A stretch of 32,000 bases of DNA from Candidatus Delongbacteria bacterium (GCA_020634015.1 JACKCN010000001.1:434779-466778), one strand, 5' to 3'. Positions 11,613-24,837 are shown, counted from the stretch's first letter. Program-made: numbers and translations. The notes: generated by a model not told the origin, from the letters alone.

Positions 11613-11882
11613 TCTGACACTCCTGTTGGCGACGCGACCTGTTGCAAACACCCGGGTCGTCTGCGGGTTCCCGGAAATCCTGGTACAGCAGCTTCGGGCC
11701 GGGGCGAGCAAAATGCACAACCGGTGGCAGGCGGGCAATGCCTGCTACCTGCCCGCGGCTGCGCCGCAGCATGCCGGATGGAAATTGTGAGGACAGAGTT
11801 GTCTCTGGCAACTCCGCCTCCGGTTGGCTATCGTGACAGCCGGTTCCCAACCGCTTTGCACAGCACAGACAACCTGTCCGTC

Positions 11883-11899
11883 GTTCCGGAATCCGGAGT
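11883..11899. promoter_or_regulatory. Near-palindromic 17-mer GTTCCGGAATCCGGAGT upstream of the M4 protease gene (candidate operator)
   Basis: Its end lies 30 nt upstream of the protease ATG. It is 14/17 identical to GTTCCGGAATTCGGAAC at 23661-23677, upstream of the hybrid kinase. It contains the 8-bp palindrome TTCCGGAA. Confidence 0.25.
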
Positions 11900-11928
11900 G
11901 GCGGCTTCATCCTGTTCAGGAGACCCCG

Positions 11929-14877
11929 ATGTCTTGTTCTCATCCGTCCTTCCGTCGTGCCCTGCAGCTGGGCAGTTGCCTGTTGGCTCTGGGGTTGGTG
12001 CCACTGGGCAGTGCCCTTCCCGGGACTGCCGTGCGCAGCGCGGATGGGGCCCATCTGGCGGCCCTGATCGGCAGCCCCGGTGCTCCTCTCTGGCCGGCCT
12101 CGGGCAGTGCGGTCGCCACGGCACGGGCTTTCGTGCAGACCTGGGGAGATGCACTGGAACTGCAATCCCAGGGTATTGACCTGCAGCTCAAGCGCCAGGG
12201 CAAGGATCCCGCAGGAGCCGAGCATCTGGCCTATGACCTGTTCTACAAGAATCGTCTGCTCTTCGGGCAGGGAGTGGTGCTGCACTTCGACAGCAAGGGC
12301 GCGCTGGTCTCGCTCAACGGCCGTGTGCCCCGTCTGCCGGGCAAGGTGGACGCGGGTCAGCCGATTGACGTGCAGCAGGTCGCCGACCGTCTGATGGACG
12401 TGACCCGTGACTGGAACCCGCGGATCGGCAAGGCCGAACTGGTCTGGGTCAACCTGGCCTGGCTGGGCCTGCCCGACTCGGGCCTGCGTCTGGCCTGGCA
12501 CATCGAGGGCGCCGATTTCGAGCGCGCCGTCGAGCAGGCGATCCTGGTGGATGCGCTCTCGGGCGAACTGATGAATTCCTGGAGCCTGATCCACACGGTG
12601 CAGGACCGGCGGATCTACAATGGCAATGGCGGCTCGGCGCTGCCCGGCACCCTCGCACGCAGCGAGGGGCAGGCGGCCACCGGCAATTTCGACATCGACG
12701 CGGCCTACGACTACTACGGTGACACATACGGATACTTCTGGCGTGGTCACGGGCGCGACAGCATCGATGGGCTGGGCCTGCCGATGGTGGCCACCACCCA
12801 TTCCACCTCGCCGCCCTGCCCCAACGCCTACTGGAGCGATGGCCTGCAGCAGATGGTGTTCTGCAACGGCACCGTCACCGACGACGTGGTGGCCCACGAA
12901 CTGACCCACGGTGTCACCAGCAACACCGCCGGGCTGATCTACCAGAACCAGTCGGGCCAGCTCAACGAAAGCTTCTCCGACGTGTTCGGCGAGCTGGTGG
13001 ACCTGTACAATGGCGACGCCAGCGTGGCCGGTGCCCCCGGTGGAGTCGCCTGGCCGGCACACGGCACGGGCCCCGGGCTGGATACACCCAACAACGCCCG
13101 CAGCAGTTGCAGCACCAGTCACACGGACGGTGTGCGCTGGCTGATCGGCGAAGATGCCGCGGCCTTCGGGGGTGAGATCCGCGACATGTGGGATCCCACC
13201 TGCCTGGGCGACCCGGATTACGCCAACAGCCCGCTGCAGACCTGCCCTTCCGGTGACTCGGGCGGTGTGCACTCGGGCAGCGGCATTCCCAATCACGCCT
13301 TCGCGATTCTGGTGGACGGCAAGGACTACAACGGCTATTCGGTCAGTGGCATCGGCACGATCAAGGCCGGGGCGATCTGGTACCAGACCCTGGCCTGGTA
13401 CCTGGTGCCCTCCTCCGATTTCGAGGACGCCTATCTGGCCTTCAATCTGGCTGGCAGCTCGCTGCTGGGAGTGAACCTGGCCGATCCGCGCACGGGCCTG
13501 GCCTCCGGCCACATTGTGGACAGTTCGGACCTTGTCCAGCTTGACCGTGCCCTGCGCGCGGTGGAAATGAACACCGAAGGCGCCTGCGGCGGTGGCAGTT
13601 CGGTGCTGAGTTCCGATGAAATCAGCGCCTGCCCCGCGGGTGACACATTCTTCAGCGAGGACTTCGAGGCGGGTCTGGGCAGCTGGACCGTGTCACACAG
13701 CGCCATGCCCACTCCCTACGACTGGGTCGGCGCCGGCAACCTGCCCGTAGGGCGCGCGGGCAACGCCGCCTGGTGCGAAGACCGCAACGTGGGTGATTGT
13801 GCGGGACAGGACGAGACGGGCAGCCATACCCTGACCAGTCCATGGATCCAGTGTGGCACGTTGGCTGGTCGCCCGCTGCTCTCCTTCCGGCACTTCGTGA
13901 ACACCGAGGGTGGCTACGATGGCTGCATCGTGCAGGTGCAGACTGCCGCTGGTACCACGACACTGGGCTTCGATGCCTGGCTCTTCAATCCGCCCAACGC
14001 TCCCCTGAATGCTGGCAATCCCTTCAGCGGCATCCCGGGTTTCACGGGCAACACCTCGAGCTGGGGGCACTCACTGGCGGACCTCGGACCCGTATTGGCC
14101 GGGGCCGACAGCCTGCGTCTGGTCTTCAGCCTGGGCAAGGACGGCTGCACGGGCAGCACGGGCTGGTATGTGGATGATGTGCGCCTGATCGATTGTGGCG
14201 ACTGTGACCAGGACGGCAATGACGACCAGTCGCAGTTCCTGGTCTCGGGCACCCACTTCATGCCCATGCCCTCGACCCTCTTCGGCGAGAGCTGGAGTCC
14301 GGGTGATCTGCCGCCGGCCGATGACACCGTCACTCTGTGTGTCAGCGCGCGCGGCGACCTGAGTTCCCCGACCGAATCGGTCACGGTGGACCTGAACGGC
14401 ACCGTGCTGGGCACCCTCTTCGCCAGCGGCGCCTCCGACTGCCCCGGCAGCCCCTCCCGCCGGGAACTGGACCTGAGTCCCGCGGTGTTCAACGCGGCCC
14501 TCGGCGCCGGTGCGGACGTGTTCGGTTTCCATTCCTCGTCCGATGTCAACACCACGCTCTGTGGGCCGAGCAATCACATGGTGGTGACCCTGAAGTACCG
14601 GCACGGCAGCGCGGGTGATCTGGACAACGACTGGATCCCCGATGGCTGCCAGTCCCTGCTGCCGGCACCTGCCGCCGAACTGAGCTACAGCGGCAATTCG
14701 CTGACGCTCAGCTGGAACCCGGTACCCGGCGCCAGTTCCTACCGTGTGCTGGTGACCGTGGATGGAGTGGTTGAAGATCTGGGCACCACCGCCGCCACCA
14801 GCATGGATCTGAGTTCGCGTCTGGCCGTCGGGCCATCCAATCAGGTGGAAACCGTGCGCGTGATCGCACTGGACTGA
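11929..14877 (+). CDS. Secreted M4 (thermolysin/vibriolysin-like) zinc metalloprotease with propeptide and long C-terminal extension (jelly-roll/MAM-like region, DxDxDG loops, FN3-like end module)
   Basis: ORF 11824..14877 trimmed to ATG 11929 (AGGAG 6 nt upstream). Signal peptide MSCSHPSFRRALQLGSCLLALGLVPLGSA. M4 catalytic motifs are VVAHELTHGV (HExxH), GQLNESFSDVFG (third zinc ligand Glu) and GGVHSGSGIPNHAF. C-terminal end: LTLSWNPVPGASSYRVLV. Confidence 0.9.
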   Translation: MSCSHPSFRRALQLGSCLLALGLVPLGSALPGTAVRSADGAHLAALIGSPGAPLWPASGSAVATARAFVQTWGDALELQSQGIDLQLKRQGKDPAGAEHLAYDLFYKNRLLFGQGVVLHFDSKGALVSLNGRVPRLPGKVDAGQPIDVQQVADRLMDVTRDWNPRIGKAELVWVNLAWLGLPDSGLRLAWHIEGADFERAVEQAILVDALSGELMNSWSLIHTVQDRRIYNGNGGSALPGTLARSEGQAATGNFDIDAAYDYYGDTYGYFWRGHGRDSIDGLGLPMVATTHSTSPPCPNAYWSDGLQQMVFCNGTVTDDVVAHELTHGVTSNTAGLIYQNQSGQLNESFSDVFGELVDLYNGDASVAGAPGGVAWPAHGTGPGLDTPNNARSSCSTSHTDGVRWLIGEDAAAFGGEIRDMWDPTCLGDPDYANSPLQTCPSGDSGGVHSGSGIPNHAFAILVDGKDYNGYSVSGIGTIKAGAIWYQTLAWYLVPSSDFEDAYLAFNLAGSSLLGVNLADPRTGLASGHIVDSSDLVQLDRALRAVEMNTEGACGGGSSVLSSDEISACPAGDTFFSEDFEAGLGSWTVSHSAMPTPYDWVGAGNLPVGRAGNAAWCEDRNVGDCAGQDETGSHTLTSPWIQCGTLAGRPLLSFRHFVNTEGGYDGCIVQVQTAAGTTTLGFDAWLFNPPNAPLNAGNPFSGIPGFTGNTSSWGHSLADLGPVLAGADSLRLVFSLGKDGCTGSTGWYVDDVRLIDCGDCDQDGNDDQSQFLVSGTHFMPMPSTLFGESWSPGDLPPADDTVTLCVSARGDLSSPTESVTVDLNGTVLGTLFASGASDCPGSPSRRELDLSPAVFNAALGAGADVFGFHSSSDVNTTLCGPSNHMVVTLKYRHGSAGDLDNDWIPDGCQSLLPAPAAELSYSGNSLTLSWNPVPGASSYRVLVTVDGVVEDLGTTAATSMDLSSRLAVGPSNQVETVRVIALD

Positions 14878-14985: not shown

Positions 14986-17403
14986 TCAGGGACCGACCAC
15001 GACCACCCGGTAGAGCGCCAGCGAAGGGGCGGCCGGCAGCAGTTCCGCATGACCGGTGCCCGTGACGGTGGCGACCAGGGTGGCCGGCGACAGGGGCTGA
15101 GCCGGATCGCTCAGGCGATGAACCTGATAGGCCAGTGCCTGGGGAACGGCCGACCAGCTCAGGCTGAGAAAGCTGCCAGAATGAGTGATCTGCAGGTCCG
15201 TGACCGACTGCAGGGGCGGAATCAGGTCGGCCAGGCTGCGCGGCTCAAGTTTGGGCAGGTCGAAACTCCAGTGCATGGTGCCGATGATCGCGCCAAAGGA
15301 TTCGCCGACCGAAGGGGTATGGGCGAAGTTGAGATCATCCACCACCAGGCTGGCGCCACTGTCCATCACTTCCCACTCACCGAAGCCCAGGTCGGTCTGA
15401 CTGACGGTGACCGACGGGACCCGCACCAGCACACTTTCCCAGTCCTCGAGCGCGGCCGTGGCACAATCGATCTCGACCGGTTCGGGAAGAGCTGCCGTGC
15501 CGATCACACCGAAGGCGCTCACGGAGGTGATTTCCGTGAGCCCGAAGTACTCGCTGACCGTGCCCGTCACGCTCACACGATCGCCGATCTGGGCACTCTG
15601 CCCCGGAGCGTAGACATGCACGCCATTCCAGGCTCCGGCAGCATCCTGAACCACCCAGGCATTGCCCGCCAGGGCCGCCGCCACCACCGTGCCCTCGATC
15701 ATCACGCTTTGCCCCGCCAAGGGCGAATCCCCCGAGGGATCCGTGGTGTACTGGATCTCATGGATCGCGGTGGGCACGACCTGCACCGATCCATAACGGG
15801 CCACGAATTCCTGATAGTACTGGTTGGCCAGATTGGCGTCGTGCAGCACCAGCAGGTTCTCGTCGTTGACCGTGTTGGCCGCCGTGCTGTAATTCGTGCT
15901 GCCCATGATCACCACCGGATCGCTGTCGGGATGATTGGCATCGATCAGGATGTACTTGTGATGCAGCAGGCCGCCCAGATTGTCAAGGATCACGGGGGCG
16001 GGCGGGCTCCAGGGACTGCTGCCCGTGCCGGTCATGTTGTTGTATTGTGAGTACACGTCGATCTGGTCGGCATCAAAGACTCCCTCGACCAGCACGCCGG
16101 CCTGATGCCGGGCGCGCATCGCGTCGGCCACGTCGATCCGGGTGAAGGAAAAGGCGCAGAACTGGATCTCATGGTCGGCGCTGGCCAGCAGGCTGGCGAT
16201 GTTGCTCATGACCGCATCGCTGGGCGAGAAGAAACTCTGCACCGCAATGCTGTCCACCTGGGCGCTGTGCGAGGTGTTGTTGGTCTTGCGTGAGCCAAAC
16301 CGGCTGAGGCTGGCATTGGGTGTGTCGCCGCTGGACCCCCACATCTCGTCGAATTCCGCGGTGTAGATCGCGGCCAGCGCATCGGACTGGATCACCATCA
16401 GATTGTTGGCGTCGTTGTTCAGACCACCGGCATTGTAATTCCAGGAACCGGAGCTGAGCACGGCCTGGCCCGCCGGAGCGCCGGCCCGGGCGTCCGCGAT
16501 CAGAATCTTGTTGTGCATCAGGCCCGTGCCGTCATTGAGACCGAATTCGTCGTCGATCACCGGAATGCCCGCGCTCTCCAGCGAGCTCAACACACTGCCG
16601 CTGTGATAGTCCGCCTCGGTGATCACGCGCACGACCACTCCCCGTGAATGAGCGGCCAGGATCGCGTTGCCGATCTGGCTGTCGGTCAGCGAATAGAGAC
16701 ACACGTCCAGCGAGTGCTGGCTCCCGTTGATCAGCGCAAGAGCCGGGGTGTAGAAGTTGGCGTTGCCGTTCGCGGGCTGCCAGCTGGCCACGGCGGTATT
16801 GACCGTGCGATTGAAGTACACGCTCACGGCCCCGGTCGTGGGCGGCTGTGTGCCTCCGTCGGATTGAGGAGTGGGCGCCTGCACCACGAAATCCGCGGGA
16901 CAGTCGTCGCTGTCGCTGCCGCTGGGCTGGCGGGCCATCGAGGAACCCGAAGGCGTGGATCCAAAGGACACCACGCCGGGAAAGGAGCCCCCCTCCCAGG
17001 CCACCGCATCGACGATGCCAGTGTATGGGCCCGTGCTCAGGATCAGCTCGTCGCCCGTATTGCCCAGGGCGAAAGCGGCCACCAGATCGGGAGCGAATCC
17101 GAAGACCGTGGTGAAGGTGGCGGCGTCCTTGGCGATGACCAGTCGCTGGCCCGCCCCGAGCACGGTCCCGGCGGGCAACTGGCCGTAATACTCGCCACCG
17201 CCGGATGTTTCCTCATCGCCGAAGTACCAGCCGGACAGATCGACCGCGGCCGCCGTGGGATTGTAGAGTTCGACGAATTCATCCAGGTCGCCGCTGACTT
17301 CGCCATCGTAGAACACTTCATCGATGACAACGTGGGACGCGATCTGGGCCGGGGCCAGACCGGCCAGGCACAGCAGCAGAGCAAGGGAAAAGGACGCGCG
17401 CAT
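14986..17403 (-). CDS. Secreted lamin-tail-domain (LTD) protein with two HKD phospholipase-D-family motifs, an ExeM/NucH-like OB module and a C-terminal FN3-like module; putative extracellular nuclease
   Basis: ORF 14986..17499 trimmed to ATG 17403. Signal peptide MRASFSLALLLCLAGLAPAQI. LTD signature VVIDEVFYDG...DEFVELYNPTAAAVDLSGWYFGD. HKD 1 is GLMHNKILIAD and HKD 2 is GLLHHKYILID. OB-like module: IHEIQYTTDPSGDSPLAGQSVMIEGTVV...IGDRVSVTGTVSEYFGLTEI. End module: FLSLSWSAVPQALAYQVHRL. Confidence 0.85.
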   Translation of the reverse strand: MRASFSLALLLCLAGLAPAQIASHVVIDEVFYDGEVSGDLDEFVELYNPTAAAVDLSGWYFGDEETSGGGEYYGQLPAGTVLGAGQRLVIAKDAATFTTVFGFAPDLVAAFALGNTGDELILSTGPYTGIVDAVAWEGGSFPGVVSFGSTPSGSSMARQPSGSDSDDCPADFVVQAPTPQSDGGTQPPTTGAVSVYFNRTVNTAVASWQPANGNANFYTPALALINGSQHSLDVCLYSLTDSQIGNAILAAHSRGVVVRVITEADYHSGSVLSSLESAGIPVIDDEFGLNDGTGLMHNKILIADARAGAPAGQAVLSSGSWNYNAGGLNNDANNLMVIQSDALAAIYTAEFDEMWGSSGDTPNASLSRFGSRKTNNTSHSAQVDSIAVQSFFSPSDAVMSNIASLLASADHEIQFCAFSFTRIDVADAMRARHQAGVLVEGVFDADQIDVYSQYNNMTGTGSSPWSPPAPVILDNLGGLLHHKYILIDANHPDSDPVVIMGSTNYSTAANTVNDENLLVLHDANLANQYYQEFVARYGSVQVVPTAIHEIQYTTDPSGDSPLAGQSVMIEGTVVAAALAGNAWVVQDAAGAWNGVHVYAPGQSAQIGDRVSVTGTVSEYFGLTEITSVSAFGVIGTAALPEPVEIDCATAALEDWESVLVRVPSVTVSQTDLGFGEWEVMDSGASLVVDDLNFAHTPSVGESFGAIIGTMHWSFDLPKLEPRSLADLIPPLQSVTDLQITHSGSFLSLSWSAVPQALAYQVHRLSDPAQPLSPATLVATVTGTGHAELLPAAPSLALYRVVVVGP

Positions 17404-17608: not shown

Positions 17609-18424
17609 ATGTGCACCATTTTTCTCGCCACGGATCCACACCCCGACTGGAGCCTGCTGCTGCTGGGCAACCGGGACGAGTTCCATGCCCGGCCCAGCCA
17701 GGACTGCGGCTGGTGGCCCGACACACCCGGACTGCTGGCCGGACGGGATCTGCAGCGGGGAGGCATCTGGCTGGGTGTGACCCGTCGCGGCCGATGGTGC
17801 GCCACGACCAATGTGCGCCGTCCGAGCGCACACGAACCGCCCGCGAACGCCCCCAGTCGCGGCAAACTGGGCCTGGAGTTTCTGGCACGCTCCCAGCGTC
17901 TGCACGACTGGCTGGATCGCCTGGCCGAGAGTGCGGGCTCATTTCCCGGATACAATCTTCTGTTGGGCGAAGGGGCTTCGGGGTACTGGGTCAGCAACCG
18001 GTTGCCGCTGGTGTCCGCGGCCGGGCAGTCGATCTGCCGCCGCCTGGACCCGGGCATCCATGGTCTGAGCAATGGCACCCTCAATGAAGACTGGCCCAAG
18101 GTGCGCGAGGGTCGCCTGCGCCTGAAGCAGCTGTTGCTGCAACAGGCCAGACCCGAAGAAGATGCCCTGCTGGACCTGCTGCTTGACCAGCGCACCTGGC
18201 CCGACGCTCAATTGCCCGACACGGGAGTGGGCCCGGAACTGGAGCGCCGCCTCTCGGCCCTGTTCATCCGGGGCCGCGAGTACGGCACGCGCGCCAGCAC
18301 CTTGCTGATCCGCGAACACAGCGGCCGCTGGATCCTGCGCGAACGCCGCTGGGCTCCCGAAGGGGTTCCCGCGGGCGACAGTCGCTTCGAATTCATGGAA
18401 GAAAGCCAGGAAACGCGCACGTGA
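17609..18424 (+). CDS. NRDE-family protein (TANGO2 homologue, Ntn-hydrolase-like N-terminal Cys)
   Basis: ORF 17324..18424 trimmed to ATG 17609 (AAGGA about 7 nt upstream). MCTIFLATDPHPDWSLLLLGNRDEFHARPS contains the Met-Cys start and the eponymous NRDE motif. Confidence 0.8.
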   Translation: MCTIFLATDPHPDWSLLLLGNRDEFHARPSQDCGWWPDTPGLLAGRDLQRGGIWLGVTRRGRWCATTNVRRPSAHEPPANAPSRGKLGLEFLARSQRLHDWLDRLAESAGSFPGYNLLLGEGASGYWVSNRLPLVSAAGQSICRRLDPGIHGLSNGTLNEDWPKVREGRLRLKQLLLQQARPEEDALLDLLLDQRTWPDAQLPDTGVGPELERRLSALFIRGREYGTRASTLLIREHSGRWILRERRWAPEGVPAGDSRFEFMEESQETRT

Positions 18425-20346
18425 AGTCTGCCACACAGTTCAAGGGACCGGCCGCCGCGCGTGTCACGATTCCCTCCGGCTCCGGTATGGGTCGCCGTCG
18501 TGCGCTGGTCCTGGTGGGCATTCATCTGGCGATTGGCGCACACATCCTGCACTGGAAACTGACGGGAAGCACCCTCAGCCCCCTGGAACCCTCCGAGGCG
18601 ATCGCCTTCTCGCGGGACGGGCTGATCAATGCGGGCACTCTGCTCCTGCTGCTGGCGATTCTGGTCACCGCGCTCTTCGGGCGCTTCTTCTGCGGCTGGA
18701 GCTGCCATCTGCTGGCCATCCAGGACGGCTCGCGCTGGCTGCTGGCGCGCCTGGGGCTTCAGCCCCGCCCGCTTGAATCACGCGTGCTGCGCTGGGTGCC
18801 CATGCTGGCCTTCGTCTACATGTTCCTCTGGCCGCTGCTGGCGCGCCTGCTGCAGACACGCGAGGTTTCCGGCCGTCTGGAGCTGATGACACCCACCTTC
18901 TGGGCCACCTTTCCCGGCTGGACCCTGGGCATTCTGACCTTCGTGCTCTGCGGGGCCCTGATCGTCTGGTTTCTGGGCGCCAAGGGTTTCTGCACCTACG
19001 CCTGCCCTTATGGCGCCGCCTTCACCGTGGTGGACAAGGTCTCGCCCCTGCGGATCCGGGTCAATTCCTCCTGCGCGGGCTGTGCGCTGTGCACGAGCGT
19101 CTGCACCTCGGGTGTCAACGTGAGCCGCGAGGTGCACACTCACGGCATGGTGGTCAGCAGCGGTTGCATGAAGACGCTGGACTGCGTGGCGGCCTGCCCC
19201 AACAAGGCCCTGCGCCTGGGCTGGGGACTGCCCGCCCTGGGTCGCGCGGCGGCACGCACGCGTGATCGGCGCACACGCGGTCTGATCTGGATCGAAGAAG
19301 GAATGCTGTTGCTGCTGGCGCTGGCCTCCTTCCTGGCCCTGCGCGGTCTCTACGGCAAGGTCTCGTTTCTGCTGGCTCTGGGAGTCGCGGTGATGGTGGC
19401 CTTCCTGGGGCTCAGCGTCTACCGGCTGTTCCGGGAACACCAGTTCCGCGTGCAATCCTGGGAGCTGCGCCGGGACGGAGAGCTCACCGGAGGGGGCAGA
19501 GTCTTTCTGGGAATGGCGGCGATCGTCATGCTCTTCGTGGCGCATTCTGGATGGATCCAGTGGGAAAGCTGGCGTGCGATCAGCGCTCTCGATCGGGCCA
19601 GCCTGCTGGAAGGTGAGGCCGGTGACACACAACTGGAGATCGCCAGCCAGCATGCCCGACTGGCCGTGTCGTACGGAGTGGCGCCGGACCACCGTATGCA
19701 GATCCTGCTGGCCCGCGTCGCCCAGCGCAGGCAGGATCCCGGCGCTGCCGAAATGCATTACCGGCTGGCCCTGAGGGCCGAACCGCGCAGCCATGCGCTG
19801 CAGGTGGAGCTGGGGGAATTTCTGGTGGCCCACGGGCAGGTCAAGGAAGGCTGGACACTGGTCGAAGAAGGCCTGAAGGGCGCCCCGGGACTGGAACGCG
19901 CGCGCCAGAGCCTGGGCCTGCACTGGCTGGAGACGGGGCGCAGCACCGAAGCGGCCAGACTCTTTGCCGAGGGCGAAAGAATGGACCCGGGTGATCCCGC
20001 CTGGCCCGCGCATCACGGCAATGCCCTGCTGCTCAGCGGCGATCCGGAGCGGGCCGAACTGGCCTGGCAACGGGCGCTGGACCTCCAGCCAGGATACCGG
20101 CCCGCCCTGCGCCGACTGGCTGAATTGCGCTGCCAGCAGGGTCGTTTTCCCGAAGGCCTGTCCATGATCGACGAGCTGCTCGCGGACTCCCCCAAGGACG
20201 CGGAGCTGCAGCTGCTGGCCGCCCGAGCCGCCTGGGCCGGAGGCCAGCGCGAGCGCGCGCGCCTGCACCTGGACCTGGCCCAGCGTTTCGGCGCCAACGC
20301 GGCGGGTGTCAACGAACTCCAGGGCCTGTTGACCCAGGACCCCTGA
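18421..20346 (+). CDS. Membrane polyferredoxin (NapH/FixG/YccM-like, 4Fe-4S) fused to a C-terminal TPR domain
   Basis: 641 aa. FCGWSCHL and FCTYACPYG motifs in TM regions. Two ferredoxin-type Cys clusters, CAGCALCTSVC and CMKTLDCVAACP. More TM helices follow, then about 270 aa of TPR-like repeats (AEMHYRLALRAEPRS..., AELAWQRALDLQPGY...). The GTG start at 18421 overlaps the NRDE stop (GTGA). An alternative start is ATG 18487. Confidence 0.8.
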   Translation: MKSATQFKGPAAARVTIPSGSGMGRRRALVLVGIHLAIGAHILHWKLTGSTLSPLEPSEAIAFSRDGLINAGTLLLLLAILVTALFGRFFCGWSCHLLAIQDGSRWLLARLGLQPRPLESRVLRWVPMLAFVYMFLWPLLARLLQTREVSGRLELMTPTFWATFPGWTLGILTFVLCGALIVWFLGAKGFCTYACPYGAAFTVVDKVSPLRIRVNSSCAGCALCTSVCTSGVNVSREVHTHGMVVSSGCMKTLDCVAACPNKALRLGWGLPALGRAAARTRDRRTRGLIWIEEGMLLLLALASFLALRGLYGKVSFLLALGVAVMVAFLGLSVYRLFREHQFRVQSWELRRDGELTGGGRVFLGMAAIVMLFVAHSGWIQWESWRAISALDRASLLEGEAGDTQLEIASQHARLAVSYGVAPDHRMQILLARVAQRRQDPGAAEMHYRLALRAEPRSHALQVELGEFLVAHGQVKEGWTLVEEGLKGAPGLERARQSLGLHWLETGRSTEAARLFAEGERMDPGDPAWPAHHGNALLLSGDPERAELAWQRALDLQPGYRPALRRLAELRCQQGRFPEGLSMIDELLADSPKDAELQLLAARAAWAGGQRERARLHLDLAQRFGANAAGVNELQGLLTQDP

Positions 20347-20414: not shown

Positions 20415-21806
20415 ATGCCGCTCGCTTCCCGTTCCGATTCCGTGCCGGAAGGTCTCCGTTCCTGGCAGCCCCCGACCCGTTCGCAGATCCTGAAGCTGGC
20501 CCTGCCGGCGGCGGGCAGTTTCATCCTCAGCAACTTCTACAACATCAACGACCTCTATTTCGCGGGCCGGATCAGCCAGGACGCCAACAACGCCATCGGT
20601 CTCTGCATGATGGTGCTGATCTTCAATGCGGCGTTCATCGTGCTGGCTTCGCGCGGGGCACTGTCGCTGGTGGCGCGCCTGACCGGGGCACGTGATACGG
20701 AAGCCGCTGGCCGCGCGGCCGCCCAGGGCATCCTGCTCAGTTTCTGCATCACGATTCCGGTGGCCGTGCTGGGCTGGCTGATCGCTCCCCACCTGCTGGC
20801 CTGGATGGGTGGACGCGACGAGGTACTGCTGCTGGCCACCCGCTACCTGCGCATGATCTATCTGGGGTTCCCGGTGCTGGCCTTTCAGCCCATGATCGAC
20901 TCGATCTTTCTGGCCCGCGGCAACTCGCGCACGGTCTTCCAGAACCAGTTGATGGCCACGGGTCTGAACACGGCTCTCAACACGGTGGTTGTCTTCGCCC
21001 TGCACGGAGGCCTGGCAGGAATCGCCGCGGCCAGCATTCTCTCGCGTGCCATTGCCGGTGCCCGTGGGTTCTGGTTGTTGACCCGGGGCCGCAATCCGTT
21101 GCCCTTGCCGCCCATGCTCAGCTGGCGCCCACGCATGTCCACCCTGCTGGAAATGATCCGGGTCGGCATTCCGGCAAGTCTCTCGGTGGCCTTCTATTCG
21201 GGCATCTTCATGGTGCTCAATCGCCTGCTCTCGCGCTTTGGGCAGGAGGCCTTCGGAGTGCTGGGCATCGGCATCCGCGGGATCGAGTCGATCGGGTTCA
21301 TGGTGTTGATGGGATTCGGGGTGGCGGCCTCGGCGCTCAGTGGCCAGGCCATTGGCGCGGGACGAGCCGACAGTGCGCGTCTCACGGGTTGGCGGGTCAC
21401 CAGCGCCGCACTGCCGATCGCTTTGTTCTTCAGTCTGGTCTGGTGGTTCCTGCCCCTGCCCCTGATCGGTCTGTACACCCAGGATCCGCGTGTCACGGAA
21501 TTGACCGTGGTCTACCTGCGCATGGCGGCCATCGCCAATCTGTTCCAGCTGATCGAGAACATTCCCGGCGACTGTCTGAGCGGTGCCGGTGTGCCCCGCA
21601 GGCAGTTCATGGTCTCGGTTCCCGGCAACCTGCTGCGCATCCCGCTGGCCTGGGGTCTGGTGGAGTATACAAGCCTGGGCATCAATGCCGTCTGGTTGGC
21701 GATCCTGATTTCCGCGGTTCTCAAGGGACTGGCCATGCTGGCCGTCTTCCGTTTCGCGGACTGGCCCGAGGAAGCGGCACGCAAGCTGCATCGCGCGCTG
21801 GATTGA
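20415..21806 (+). CDS. MATE-family efflux transporter
   Basis: 463 aa with 12 hydrophobic segments. The N-terminus [30 protein letters not shown] is typical of the MATE (NorM/DinF) family. Confidence 0.9.
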
Positions 21807-21910
21807 TTGCCTTGGGTGACGGTCGACAGGACCGTTGCATCGAGCAGTGTGTTGACGGTCGGTACGACGGTTGTGTCAACCCACACCTTGACCGTCGTGT
21901 CGACCGTCAG

Positions 21911-22198
21911 CTCGTCCACTAGCTCGACCACCATCTCGTCCACCATCTCGTCCACCATCTCGTCCACCACCTCGTCCGCCATCTCGTCCGCCATCTCGTC
22001 CACCATCTCGTCCACCATCTCGTCCACCATCTCGTCCACCACCTCGTCCACCACCTCGTCCACCATCTCGTCCACCATCTCGTCCGCCACCTCGTCCACC
22101 ATCTCGTCCGCCATCTCGTCCACCATCTCGTCCACCATCTCGTCCACCATCTCGTCCGCCATCTCGTCCACCATCTCGTCCGCCATCTCGTCAGACAC
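21911..22198. repeat. Tandem array, 24 units of 12 bp, consensus CTCGTCCRCCAY (minus strand RTGGYGGACGAG)
   Basis: Parsed unit by unit. The 21 core units (21935-22186) differ only at unit position 8 (A/G) and position 12 (T/C): 12 CACCAT, 5 CGCCAT, 3 CACCAC, 1 CGCCAC. Degenerate units lie at 21911-21934 and 22187-22198. No stop codon occurs in any of the six frames. Confidence 0.95.
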
Positions 22199-22232
22199 CA
22201 TGGTGGTCGAAGCGACCGTCACCCCTCCAATG

Positions 22233-22254
22233 AAAACAGCCCCCGAAAGGGCTG
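22233..22254 (-). terminator. Intrinsic terminator downstream of the hybrid kinase gene
   Basis: The minus strand reads CAGCCC-TTTCGG-GGGCTG-TTTT (stems 22249-22254 and 22237-22242, T-tract = complement of 22233-22236). It begins 30 nt after the kinase stop. The stem is short (6 bp). Confidence 0.45.
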
Positions 22255-22283
22255 GAAGCATGTGGAAGACTGGGTGCTTTCGA

Positions 22284-23594
22284 TCAGAGGCCCGGCGGCA
22301 GCGGCCCGGATATCCGTTCCGCGACCCGGTGGCTGAAGTCAATCAGCTTGAAAGGTTTCTGGATCACGGGCACACCCCAGATCCGCGCGATGGCATCCAC
22401 GTCCTCGTCCATCATGAAACCGGTCACCATCAGGGCACGCTGGTCACGATTGCGTTCCTTCAGACGTTTCAGGGTTTCCAGACCGCCAAGGCGGGGCATG
22501 ACCAGGTCCAGGATCACCAGATCAAACGCTTCCCGGGAGTCGGAAAGGCGTTCGAGGGCATCTTCTCCGTCACGCGCACAGACCACCGTGTAGCCCAGGC
22601 GCTCGAGGATCTCGGACGTCGTCTCACGAATGCCCGAATCATCCTCGGCCAGCAGGATCCTGCCCTGACCGGTCCGGACTCTGCTTGTCTGGGGCAGCAC
22701 CTGCTCGCCCGGAGCGGAATCCAGCAAAGGAAGCAGCACACGGACCTGTGTCCCGCTGCCGACCCGGCTGTCCAGCAACAGAAATCCCTGATGCTCAAGA
22801 ATGATCTCGCGTGCCCGTTCGAGACCCTTGCCCGCACGCCCGTGATGGGTGCTGTACCCTCCGGCGAGCACACGTTCCATCAGTTCGACAGGAATGCCGT
22901 AGCCCGTATCGGAGACACAAAGACTCAGGTAGGCCCGCCCGGGTTTTCCCGATCGGTTCGAGGAACCAGGATCGATCCCGGTTGTGACACCTCGACGCAG
23001 CATGGTCAGCTCGGTGGCGCTGAGTACACATTCCTGCAGATGAATGCCCAGAACTCCGCCATCGGGCATGGCTTCCATCGCATTGCGCAGCAGTTCCTGC
23101 AGTGCGCTGAGCAGTGTGGCGGGATTCAGCTGGAGCCAGCCCTCGACGTTCCTGGAATCCCAATGCAGGCGCAAATTGCGATGGCCTGAAACCTGGAGCG
23201 TGCTGCGCAGGATCAGCCAGAGCTGGTCGGGGCTGAGTGTTTCCCGCCCCAGCGCCGACGGCGAGAGCAGGGACAATACCTGACGGGAGGCCGAGCAGGC
23301 ATTCACGATTGATTCTTCGAGTGCGTCCAGAGCACGGCGCGCGGGTGCGGGAAGCCCGGCCTGTTCGGCGCTGGAAGCCGGAATGCCATCCAGCTTGCGT
23401 GCAAGCACCGACAATTCGCCGCTGATGCCCTTGAGCCAGTCAACCAAGGATTCCATGGCCGCGTGATCCAGCACGGCATGCTCCGATTTCGGATTCGGTT
23501 CTGAGTGGGGACCCACCTGGTAGAACGCGTCCACCTGCAGGGTGTGGCGGGATTGACGTACTTGGCGTGGCATCCGGTCTGGCTGAGAAATCAT
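22284..23594 (-). CDS. Cytoplasmic hybrid histidine kinase (divergent DHp + HATPase_c + C-terminal receiver domain), no TM or sensor domain
   Basis: 436 aa. N-box [13 protein letters not shown]1 SDTGYGIP, G2-like GRAGKGLE. Receiver domain: [13 protein letters not shown]...[15 protein letters not shown]...LMVTGF...VIQKPF. GGAG RBS lies 5 nt before the ATG at 23594. Confidence 0.85.
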
Positions 23595-23646
23595 CTGTGC
23601 TCCAAGAGCCGCGTTCAGCGGGGCGCGCGGAGTGTGCGATCAATGT

Positions 23647-23677
23647 CGGAACCAAACCTTGTTCCGGAATTCGGAAC
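23647..23677. promoter_or_regulatory. Three alternating CGGAAC / GTTCCG / CGGAAC half-sites upstream of the hybrid kinase (candidate operator)
   Basis: CGGAAC 23647-23652, GTTCCG 23661-23666, CGGAAC 23672-23677. These form perfect inverted repeats with 8-nt and 5-nt spacers. The site lies 53-83 nt upstream of the kinase ATG. Confidence 0.3.
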
Positions 23678-23735
23678 AATAGACACAGGGAGTATCGGCA
23701 AGGGAGTTGCTCAGATCCACCATGCCCGGTCAACG

Positions 23736-23758
23736 AAAAACGGGGCCCGAAGGCCCCG
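23736..23758 (-). terminator. Intrinsic terminator of fbaB
   Basis: The minus strand reads CGGGGCC-TTCG-GGCCCCG followed by TTTTT (complement of 23736-23740). It begins 24 nt downstream of the fbaB stop. Confidence 0.7.
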
Positions 23759-23781
23759 CATCTCGTTGACTGACAGCACGC

Positions 23782-24837
23782 TCAGGCGACGGTCACGCCC
23801 TGCTCGAGGTAGACGTCCTGCACGGCGTTGATGATTTCCACACCCTCGGCCAGCGGCTTCTGGAAGGCCTTGCGCCCCAGGATCAGGCCCATGCCACCAC
23901 CGCGCTTGTTGATCACGGCGGTGCGCACCGCATCGGCCAGGTCATTGGCACCGGAGGCGCCGCCGCTGTTGATCAGCCCACAGCGTCCCATGTAGCCGTT
24001 GGCAAGCTGCCAGCGGACAAGATCAACAGGGTGGTCGCTGCAGAGCGGGCCATAGGCCAGCTTGTCGGTCTTGGCGAACTTGATCGCGTTGAAGCCGCCG
24101 TTGTTTTCGGGCAGCTTCTGCTTGATGATGTCGGCTTCAATGGTCACGCCCAGGTGGTTGGCCTGGCCGGTGAGATCGGCGGCCACATGGTAGTCGACCC
24201 CGTCCTTGACGAATTCGGGATTGCGCAGGTAGCACCAGAGAATGGTGAACAGGCCCTGGGTATGGGCATAGGCGAAGGCCTGGCTGATCTCGATCAGCTG
24301 GCGGTTGCTCTCTTCGCTGCCGAAGTAGATCGTGGCGCCCACGCCGGCCGCACCCATTTCGACGGCCTGATCGACATCGGCGAACATGATCTGGTCAAAG
24401 GTGTTGGGATAGGTCATCAGCTCGTTGTGGTTGAGCTTGACCACGAAGGGAATCTTGTGGGCATACCTGCGGCTGACCATGCCCAGCACGCCCAGGGTCG
24501 AGGCCACCCCATTGCAGCCCGCCTCGATGGCCAGCTTGACGATGTTTTCCGGGTCGAAGTAATCGGGATTGCGCGAGAAGCTGGCGGCCGCGGTATGCTC
24601 GATGCCCTGATCCACCGGCAGGATCGAGAGAAACCCGGTGCCGGCCAGACGACCGGTATGGTGCAGGCGGCTCAGGCTGCCCAGCACGCGATTGCTGCGG
24701 TTGGAAGCCGCAAAGACGGTGTCCAGGTGGTTGGGGCCCGGCAGATGCAGGCGGTCCTTGGTGATGCCCGTGCAGGTGTGATCCAGCAACAGGCGAGCGT
24801 CTTTCTCACCCAGCAGGTTGACGATTCGGTCCAGCAT
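23782..24837 (-). CDS. fbaB: Class I fructose-bisphosphate aldolase (DhnA/FbaB type)
   Basis: 351 aa, collinear by eye with E. coli FbaB along its whole length: [114 protein letters not shown] lies 7 nt upstream. Confidence 0.92.

Follow-up and report, generated by a model that had tools for sequence, protein, structure and literature searches.

The stretch analysed here, hereafter the window, is 32,000 nucleotides of DNA from Candidatus Delongbacteria bacterium (GCA_020634015.1 JACKCN010000001.1:434779-466778), and our subject is a tandem array of 12-bp units at positions 21911-22198, together with the repeat element of which it forms the centre. The array lies within a 477-bp spacer between two convergent genes. 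On its left, a MATE efflux gene occupies positions 20415-21806 of the + strand (Pfam MatE, E = 4.6e-48; exact protein MCB9472547.1), with its 3′ end facing the element. On its right, a hybrid HATPase_c and receiver-domain gene identified by Pfam, referred to below as the kinase gene, occupies positions 22284-23594 of the − strand (exact protein MCB9472548.1). The intrinsic terminator of the kinase gene, a stem and then TTTTCATT at 22237-22254 on the − strand, falls outside the element. The MATE, kinase and aldolase products are MCB9472547, MCB9472548 and MCB9472549 on a contig of 1,047,445 bp. The original prediction for this locus had proposed either a repeat peptide or a structured minisatellite. 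The coordinates that it gave for the flanks were correct, with the MATE stop codon at 21804-21806, the stop of the minus-strand open reading frame (ORF) at 21512 and the plus-strand ORF extending to 23189, and the ATG at 22261 does lie upstream of the kinase terminator hairpin (22254-22237).

The array consists of 24 head-to-tail 12-mers that read CTCGTCCRCCAY on the + strand and RTGGYGGACGAG on the − strand. Tandem Repeats Finder (TRF) reported a single array at 21911-22192 with a period of 12, 23.5 copies, 92% matches, a score of 473 and the consensus CTCGTCCACCAT. The pattern CTCGTCCRCCAY was matched exactly at 21 consecutive units (21935-22186), which constitute a homogenised core, and with one mismatch or fewer at 25 sites where 1.03 were expected, a level reached in 0 of 100 shuffles. 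The core varies only at unit positions 8 (A/G) and 12 (T/C), and a census of its units gave CACCAT 12 times, CGCCAT 5 times, CACCAC 3 times and CGCCAC once, in addition to three edge variants. TRF, pattern matching and the unit census thus bear out the 24 units, the 21-unit core and the 12/5/3/1 variant counts first described for this array, which has the unit length (10-100 bp), head-to-tail arrangement and excess over chance of a minisatellite or variable-number tandem repeat (VNTR). The order of unit variants in the window array had no clear higher-order period; a 36-bp period was reported by TRF only at two related loci described below (L014 and L049). The 12-nt register extends beyond 21911, since in-register 12-mers occur at 21875, 21887, 21899 and 22211. 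Each of these flanking 12-mers agrees with the variant unit CTCGACCACCAT in 7-8 of its 12 positions; the background, measured against the main consensus, averages 3.2.

Two statements about the sequence of the array held only in part. It had been described as free of stop codons in all six frames, which is true of the 21-unit core but not of the full 24-unit span, where the edge units contain TAG at 21920 (+ strand), TAG at 21921 (− strand) and TGA at 22193 (− strand). An array without stops is in any case unremarkable, as it is expected from 56% of random 12-mers of the same base composition. Similarly, the shared wobble positions of the unit never vary in the window array as claimed, but positions 1, 7 and 10 are variable in the sister copies.

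The array is bracketed by hairpins and a closing inverted repeat, which makes the description as a structured minisatellite apt: it is a genuine 12-bp minisatellite within a composite structure of about 410 bp (21814-22224). An outer inverted repeat begins with the left arm GGGTGACGGTCG at 21814-21825, which we take as the left end of the element; its 12 nt are 100% complementary to 22213-22224. A small hairpin, ACGGTC-GACAG-GACCGT, follows at 21816-21838 and has homologues in the CGGTCCTTTCGACCG hairpins that stand at either end of the related L014 copy. Next comes a long hairpin, itself an inverted repeat, at 21851-21910, with arms at approximately 21853-21871 and 21891-21909. Degenerate array units, still in register, make up its 3′ arm, and the 5′ arm is an inverted copy of them. 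Folding of 21800-21935 gave −67.8 kcal/mol (z = −4.95), and equal stability was obtained in 0 of 200 shuffles. Beyond the 24-unit array (21911-22198) with its core at 21935-22186, an inverted partial unit, ATGGTGGTCGA, at 22200-22210 is 100% complementary over 11 nt to unit 2 of the array (21924-21934). A second small hairpin overlaps the outer right arm CGACCGTCACCC (22213-22224); together, as judged from the inverted repeat and the fold, they occupy 22206-22224, taken as the right end of the element. In both the minimum free energy and the centroid folds of the + strand the 12-nt outer arms form a closing stem, and the array is a large unpaired loop closed by them. The edge hairpins are built on TGACGGTCG/CGACCGTCA. 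The 32-kb window contains four exact TGACGGTCG sites, every one of them within the element. In about 100 kb of same-species sequence, which overlaps and amounts to roughly 55 kb when counted once, the hairpin motif was also confined to the element, and exact TGACGGTCG occurred in the other fetched same-species loci only where these overlapped the window's element.

The original prediction had suggested that other copies of the 12-mer be sought in the genome. Searches of protein space with the two open frames of the array led to two other loci with homologous flanks; both protein matches were gene calls laid over copies of the element. The first, reached through P0002, is an 899-bp contig (L014) with 7-8 units, in which a 65-nt direct repeat with the hairpin CGGTCCTTTCGACCG lies on either side of the array. 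The two direct repeats of L014 (174-238 and 366-430) are 74% identical, and the hairpin stands at the start of both, oriented alike. The second, reached through P0203 and referred to as locus 2 (L049), has 12 units that are more degenerate, in a 397-bp spacer between convergent genes for a SurA-like isomerase and an M23 peptidase. The three loci have in common the unit, its A/G and T/C variants, a last unit of the form CGTC(A/T)GAC and hairpins of the form GACGGT(C/T)...(G/A)ACCGTC. Homology among their flanks extends for about 40-130 nt and then switches abruptly to unrelated sequence. Searches by nhmmer with profiles of these flanks gave E values of 1e-22 to 1e-33, at the window, L014 and L049-type loci only. 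All indels between copies are multiples of 12. The ends are less uniform: the window copy has a perfect 12-nt inverted repeat, L014 a palindrome-containing 65-nt direct repeat, and L049 is more degenerate.

At least two copies reside in one genome. The M23 peptidase of locus 2 is identical at 412 of 413 residues to MCB9472178.1, which is encoded on the window's 1.05-Mb contig, and the metagenome-assembled genome (MAG) GCA_020431785.1 contains both the window locus and locus 2; the two copies lie about 370 annotated proteins apart. Both of these loci, the only ones with known context, lie between convergent genes. Dispersed copies in a single genome, with homologous ends, unrelated outer flanks and conserved terminal modules around a variable number of tandem units (24, 12 and 7-8), are what is expected of a composite interspersed repeat.

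A sister species whose MATE protein is 77% identical has the same gene order with a 61-bp MATE-kinase spacer that contains no 12-mer array and is too diverged to be aligned as an empty site. A 65% relative lacks the kinase gene, and its 393-bp spacer likewise contains no array. Absence of the array from the site in both relatives indicates that the element is lineage-specific. The 61-bp sister spacer (L044 7441-7501; also L045 3175-3236) is itself a palindrome of 9-bp tandem units, GTCGGACAA GTCGGACAT GTCGGACCC and then GTCCGACTT GTCCGAC, and is probably a bidirectional terminator.

From these data we consider the locus to be, probably, a non-coding composite repeat element with hairpin or inverted-repeat ends and an internal 12-bp minisatellite, situated between convergent genes and present in at least two copies per genome. 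The array would be the expanded internal tandem module of the approximately 410-bp interspersed element, whose plan would comprise hairpin edge modules with degenerate 12-mers, a closing inverted repeat and central units of variable number. Replication slippage or unequal recombination may have multiplied the middle units and kept them homogeneous, with decay at the edges, which would explain the near-perfect core, the degenerate ends and the occurrence of the same A/G and T/C variants across loci. Copies would be tolerated between convergent 3′ gene ends, the location seen at two of the three loci, because insertions there do least harm. The element probably has no dedicated cellular function, and if it acts at all, it would most likely be by terminating transcription between the two convergent genes or insulating them from each other. 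The verdict that no known feature type explains the locus was therefore too strong, as it fits small composite interspersed repeats with a variable tandem module.

Among known repeats, the architecture most resembles that of the BOX elements of pneumococci and streptococci. These are boxA-(boxB)n-boxC composites that are over-represented between convergent genes; longer BOX arrays vary more, and boxB folds independently of the closing structure (PMC3049150). As here, paired terminal modules surround tandem internal modules whose number varies (PMC3049150), the closing stem and the internal array fold separately, and the copies are dispersed in intergenic sites and enriched between convergent genes. 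However, the internal unit is 45 bp in BOX and 12 bp here, there are more than 100 BOX copies against three known here, the 50-60-nt boxA and boxC contrast with short GACGGTC-type terminal hairpins, and the host is an uncultured lineage labelled Delongbacteria or Calditrichota. Thus the element is likened to BOX by its architecture and would not be a sequence member of that family, as no sequence relationship is expected. A poorly known uncultured lineage would thereby gain a composite repeat family of BOX-like type.

The array also resembles the bacterial VNTRs used for strain typing by multiple-locus VNTR analysis, in its unit length of 10-100 bp, homogenised centre, degenerate edges, possible allelic differences between strains and tendency to break short-read assemblies, and is a potential strain-typing locus. 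Classical VNTRs are single loci, however, whereas here the array and its hairpin flanks occur at two or more genomic sites. Short imperfect extragenic palindromes that lie at 3′ gene ends, clustered and in alternating orientation, are shared with repetitive extragenic palindromic (REP) sequences and bacterial interspersed mosaic elements (BIMEs), but REPs have no minisatellite core. A genome-wide REP or BIME family was rejected, as the hairpin motif occurs only inside the element both in the 32-kb window and in the roughly 55 kb of distinct same-species sequence. L014, with the same hairpin at both ends in direct orientation, is reminiscent of ends of the IS200/IS605 insertion sequence type. 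No gene for a REP-associated tyrosine transposase (RAYT) or for TnpA was seen in this comparison; for L014 no transposase search was possible.

Comparison of assemblies provided information on the stability of the array. Four independent short-read assemblies of the same species, 99.5-99.8% identical, stop at the window site. Three break inside the array, L001 after 8 units, L055 after 5.3 and L002, which enters from the opposite side, after 5.5; the fourth contig (L048) stops 6 bp past the MATE stop codon. The parts that they cover are identical to the window. Since four assemblies share identical partial sequence and then break, we conclude that the long array is real in several samples. The element thus breaks every short-read assembly of the species at the window site, and its recognition explains MAG fragmentation. 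At locus 2, four assemblies (L049, L050, L051 and L054) are identical. In a fifth (L053), whose contig ends in the array, the terminal units CTCGTCCACCAC CTCGTCCGCCAC CGTGTCTGACAC replace CTCGTCTACTAC CGCGTCCACTAC CGCGTCTGACAC and adjoin about 130 nt of 100% identical flank. Different terminal units beside an identical flank point to turnover of the array and not to point mutation.

Several observations weigh against interpretation as a non-coding composite repeat. Clear terminal inverted repeats were found in the window copy only, and neither a target-site duplication at the element boundaries nor an associated transposase was found. Only three loci emerged from searches of less than the whole genome, possibly a very small number of copies for a mobile element, and the L014 contig is not tied to any genome of origin. 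The copy number of 24 comes from one spanning assembly, with independent support for the outer 8 and 5.5 units only. With four of the locus 2 assemblies identical, the evidence for instability comes down to a single divergent allele and the assembly breaks. Other observations would suit a coding sequence. The minus-strand frame that reads (M/V)(V/A)DE, hereafter the MVDE frame, was the best of the six by codon usage, with log-likelihood ratios per codon of 1.13 in the array and 0.30 in the MATE-side flank, compared with 0.26-0.72 for real genes; this signal is weak evidence because the array adds only four distinct codons. In addition, the period is a multiple of three, and the same 12-mer encodes real acidic tails elsewhere, for example the C terminus of an ScpB-like protein in the metagenome contig L015.

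We also considered the possibility that the element is a functional transcription insulator, in which the C-rich RNA of the array would serve as a Rho loading (Rho utilization, rut) site. Read-through from the MATE gene would then be stopped before it ran antisense into the kinase gene, and the hairpins and closing stem would present the tract. Rho prefers C-rich, G-poor and unstructured RNA of about 70-80 nt. The + strand of the array is 51% C and 11% G, and its C-minus-G value over 78 nt (0.46) is the maximum of the window, the 99.9th percentile elsewhere being 0.26. Furthermore, the fold prediction leaves the array unpaired, as a loop that a 12-bp stem closes. Downstream of the MATE gene there is thus a C-rich, G-poor, unstructured tract of at least the 70-80 nt described for rut sites. 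The MATE gene has no hairpin and T run of its own, the sole such downstream site being on the kinase strand, and at the two loci whose context is known, the left-hand gene has the C-rich strand as its sense strand. On the other hand, the left-hand gene at locus 2 has a canonical intrinsic terminator upstream of the element, an orientation rule cannot rest on two loci, and the sister species manages with its 61-bp palindrome. We therefore regard the insulator as plausible, be it a function or a side-effect, but unlikely. It is compatible with a dispersed repeat, and the two could be combined in a mobile, orientation-specific insulator cassette whose 150-300-nt C-rich tract would load Rho between convergent genes. 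The combined proposal is more doubtful still, and just as doubtful is its corollary that array length would tune termination efficiency. Such a cassette would parallel terminator-like mobile repeats, pneumococcal SPRITE among them, but in Rho-dependent form. If the C-rich array did act as a Rho-loading insulator, small mobile repeats could spread Rho-dependent terminator function.

A further alternative is that the array is a purely local product of slippage and that the other two loci are old segmental duplicates or cases of chance convergence. DNA-pattern scans for homologues covered 185,579 species-representative genomes, JGI metagenomes and viral contigs, and yielded 9, 27 and 2 loci, respectively. 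The flanks of all these scan loci are unrelated to the window, and none of the loci belongs to the element family. The same or a similar 12-mer has been expanded in actinobacteria, in eukaryote-like contigs, in a giant-virus bin and in Serpentinimonas. Because the flanks are unrelated throughout, we conclude that the 12-mer expands independently in many lineages, which favours a local origin, as does the lack of any target-site duplication or transposase among the features seen. However, the three loci of the element are homologous on both flanks, including the special terminal unit and the hairpin modules, and this homology has sharp ends. Two-sided flank homology excludes convergence for these three loci, and we consider a purely local origin improbable. 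It is possible that the copies arose by duplication rather than by transposition. As far as sequence comparison goes, the 12-mer is a recurrent slippage-prone unit, and the element family is restricted to samples of this species.

Several of the independent expansions deserve a brief description. In Serpentinimonas barnesii H1 (NZ_BAWN01000003.1 and NZ_BAWN01000009.1), (CTCATCCGCCAC)n occurs at the ends of two contigs (L005 1-60 and L013 5545-5632). Its unit is one base off the CGCCAC variant, and its flanks are unrelated to the element. The array lies in an apparent multisubunit cation/proton antiporter operon, where the upstream ORF apparently continues as (SSAT)n, and it evidently breaks that draft assembly. 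Five eukaryote-like contigs with a GC content of 37-49% (L016, L025, L034, L037 and L040, from Ga0307515 and Ga0307507) carry (GACGAGGTGGTG)n in 6.5-15.5 units between nearly the same flanks, cagcagcaggagc upstream and agaagcagtaatcctatatatcac downstream, which points to a dispersed repeat or a gene family of that organism's own. In a giant-virus bin with a GC content of about 30% (GVMAG-M-3300023184-13; L029 and L043), 4.5 units of GACGAGGTGGTG lie inside a GGTGGT run and are probably read as a Gly/Arg-rich (GGRG) repeat and not as VVDE.

The original prediction had also raised the possibility that the minus strand encodes a strongly acidic (M/V)(V/A)DE repeat peptide. Such a small protein would start at ATG 22201 or ATG 22261. 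Apart from the codon-usage, period and acidic-tail observations given above, this view draws on the fact that all indels between copies preserve the frame, on the choice of the MVDE frame by Prodigal-type callers at L002 and L014, and on the existence of xxDE repeats in real proteins such as lipoprotein linkers and the ScpB tail. The ORF itself does not behave as a gene, however. In the window it has no stop of its own and continues for 295 nt antisense into the MATE gene; at locus 2 the corresponding frame reads through the terminator into the SurA-like gene, and at L014 it reads into unrelated sequence. The tails at the three homologous loci are thus unrelated, with no conserved stop or start. 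The ATG is not conserved either, as locus 2 has GAG GTG at that position, and there is no Shine-Dalgarno sequence at a usable distance: a GGAGG lies more than 20 nt from ATG 22201, compared with 5-8 nt in several neighbouring genes. The callers disagree as well, with the MVDE frame at L002 and L014 but the opposite-strand SSTI frame at locus 2. Across the family the unit varies at positions 1, 2, 3, 5, 7, 8, 9, 10, 11 and 12, with no wobble excess. A signal peptide or lipobox is absent, unlike in real xxDE proteins. Because the NCBI accessions MCB9472547-49 are consecutive, no coding sequence is annotated on the array.

Database searches led to the same result. The MVDE product was compared with 5.8 billion proteins and 1.84 billion representatives, and the SSTI product with 5.8 billion proteins. 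The only real relatives in these collections were P0002 and P0203, both of them copies of the element; 889 HMMER matches were to unrelated low-complexity acidic repeats, often lipoprotein linkers with signal peptides. Pfam searches with the repeat products gave matches below the cut-off only, and the full-length ORF products were absent from a collection of 15 billion proteins. Without a conserved start, stop or tail, a usable Shine-Dalgarno sequence, an annotated coding sequence or a protein family, the acidic repeat peptide is not supported; we consider a small repeat protein very unlikely, and we put the chance that the array is translated into a functional peptide just as low. The element instead draws spurious gene calls in different frames (a 42-aa fragment and a 177-aa and a 169-aa ‘protein’), and recognising it prevents false annotation of an acidic repeat protein.

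A genuinely coding version of the 12-mer provides a useful comparison. An ScpB-like protein on two metagenome contigs with identical flanks (L015 6914-7015 and L017 4513-4638) ends in an (ADEV)n tail made from the unit GACGAGGTGGCG, present in 8.5 and 10.5 copies respectively, and the stop codon comes directly after the array; this is a coding VNTR made from the same 12-mer. Acidic xxDE proteins of this kind, among which we count the lipoprotein linkers, share with the window the same or a near-identical 12-bp unit, its frame and variable copy numbers. They differ in that their repeats lie inside a recognisable protein and the stop follows directly after the array, and the window ORF has neither feature. 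Extensions of the neighbouring genes were also rejected: the array is in frame with the MATE gene only across its TGA stop codon and is out of frame with the kinase gene, and these genes carry no such tails in relatives.

Another candidate was a non-B DNA structure, with a G-quadruplex formed by the minus-strand (ATGGTGGACGAG)n or an i-motif formed by the plus strand, that would affect replication or transcription. In its favour are a GGTGG in every 12 nt and strong strand asymmetry. However, the array contains no run of three or more G residues, so that only two-tetrad structures with 7-nt loops are possible, and the G4Hunter scores (mean 0.74; 25-nt maximum 1.04) are below both the usual threshold of 1.2 and the 99th percentile of the window (1.20). 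The suggested G-quadruplex or i-motif potential is therefore weak, and we regard a role for such a structure as highly improbable. Rfam searches of the window gave only sub-threshold matches resembling microRNA precursors (21-22 bits against cut-offs of 69-168), which arise from the long hairpin alone, and nothing was found in L014. A sponge RNA for CsrA-type GGA binding was rejected, judged from the sequence alone, as the units contain GUGGAC or GCGGAC and not ANGGA. Least credible of all is expansion of the array by the assembler, which would account for its being spanned by a single assembly and for the approximately 10 interior units without independent support, but L001, L055 and L002, which enter from one side or the other, agree in sequence as far as they go and break off within the array, exactly as expected from a real array longer than the reads.

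No transposase was seen among the genes of the window, and an iteron or centromere array was ruled out because no partition or replication genes are nearby. Near-identical proteins from this species (window 20415-24837) are labelled Calditrichota, Candidatus Cloacimonadota or Candidatus Delongbacteria across NCBI records, so that the taxonomic placement of the source is inconsistent. Farther to the left, an 805-aa protein with a lamin-tail domain and two PLD-like domains is encoded on the − strand at 14986-17403, adjoining a gene for an M4 (thermolysin-type) peptidase of about 1000 aa at 11824-14877; the lamin-tail/PLD protein is absent from the locus of the 77% relative and kept in the 65% relative. 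Between this region and the MATE gene (window 17609-20346; also L044 and L046) lies a TANGO2-family gene followed, with a 4-bp overlap, by a gene for a 641-aa protein that has 4Fe-4S cluster motifs, what appear to be membrane segments, and TPR repeats at its C terminus. This gene pair is found upstream of the MATE gene in all three species.

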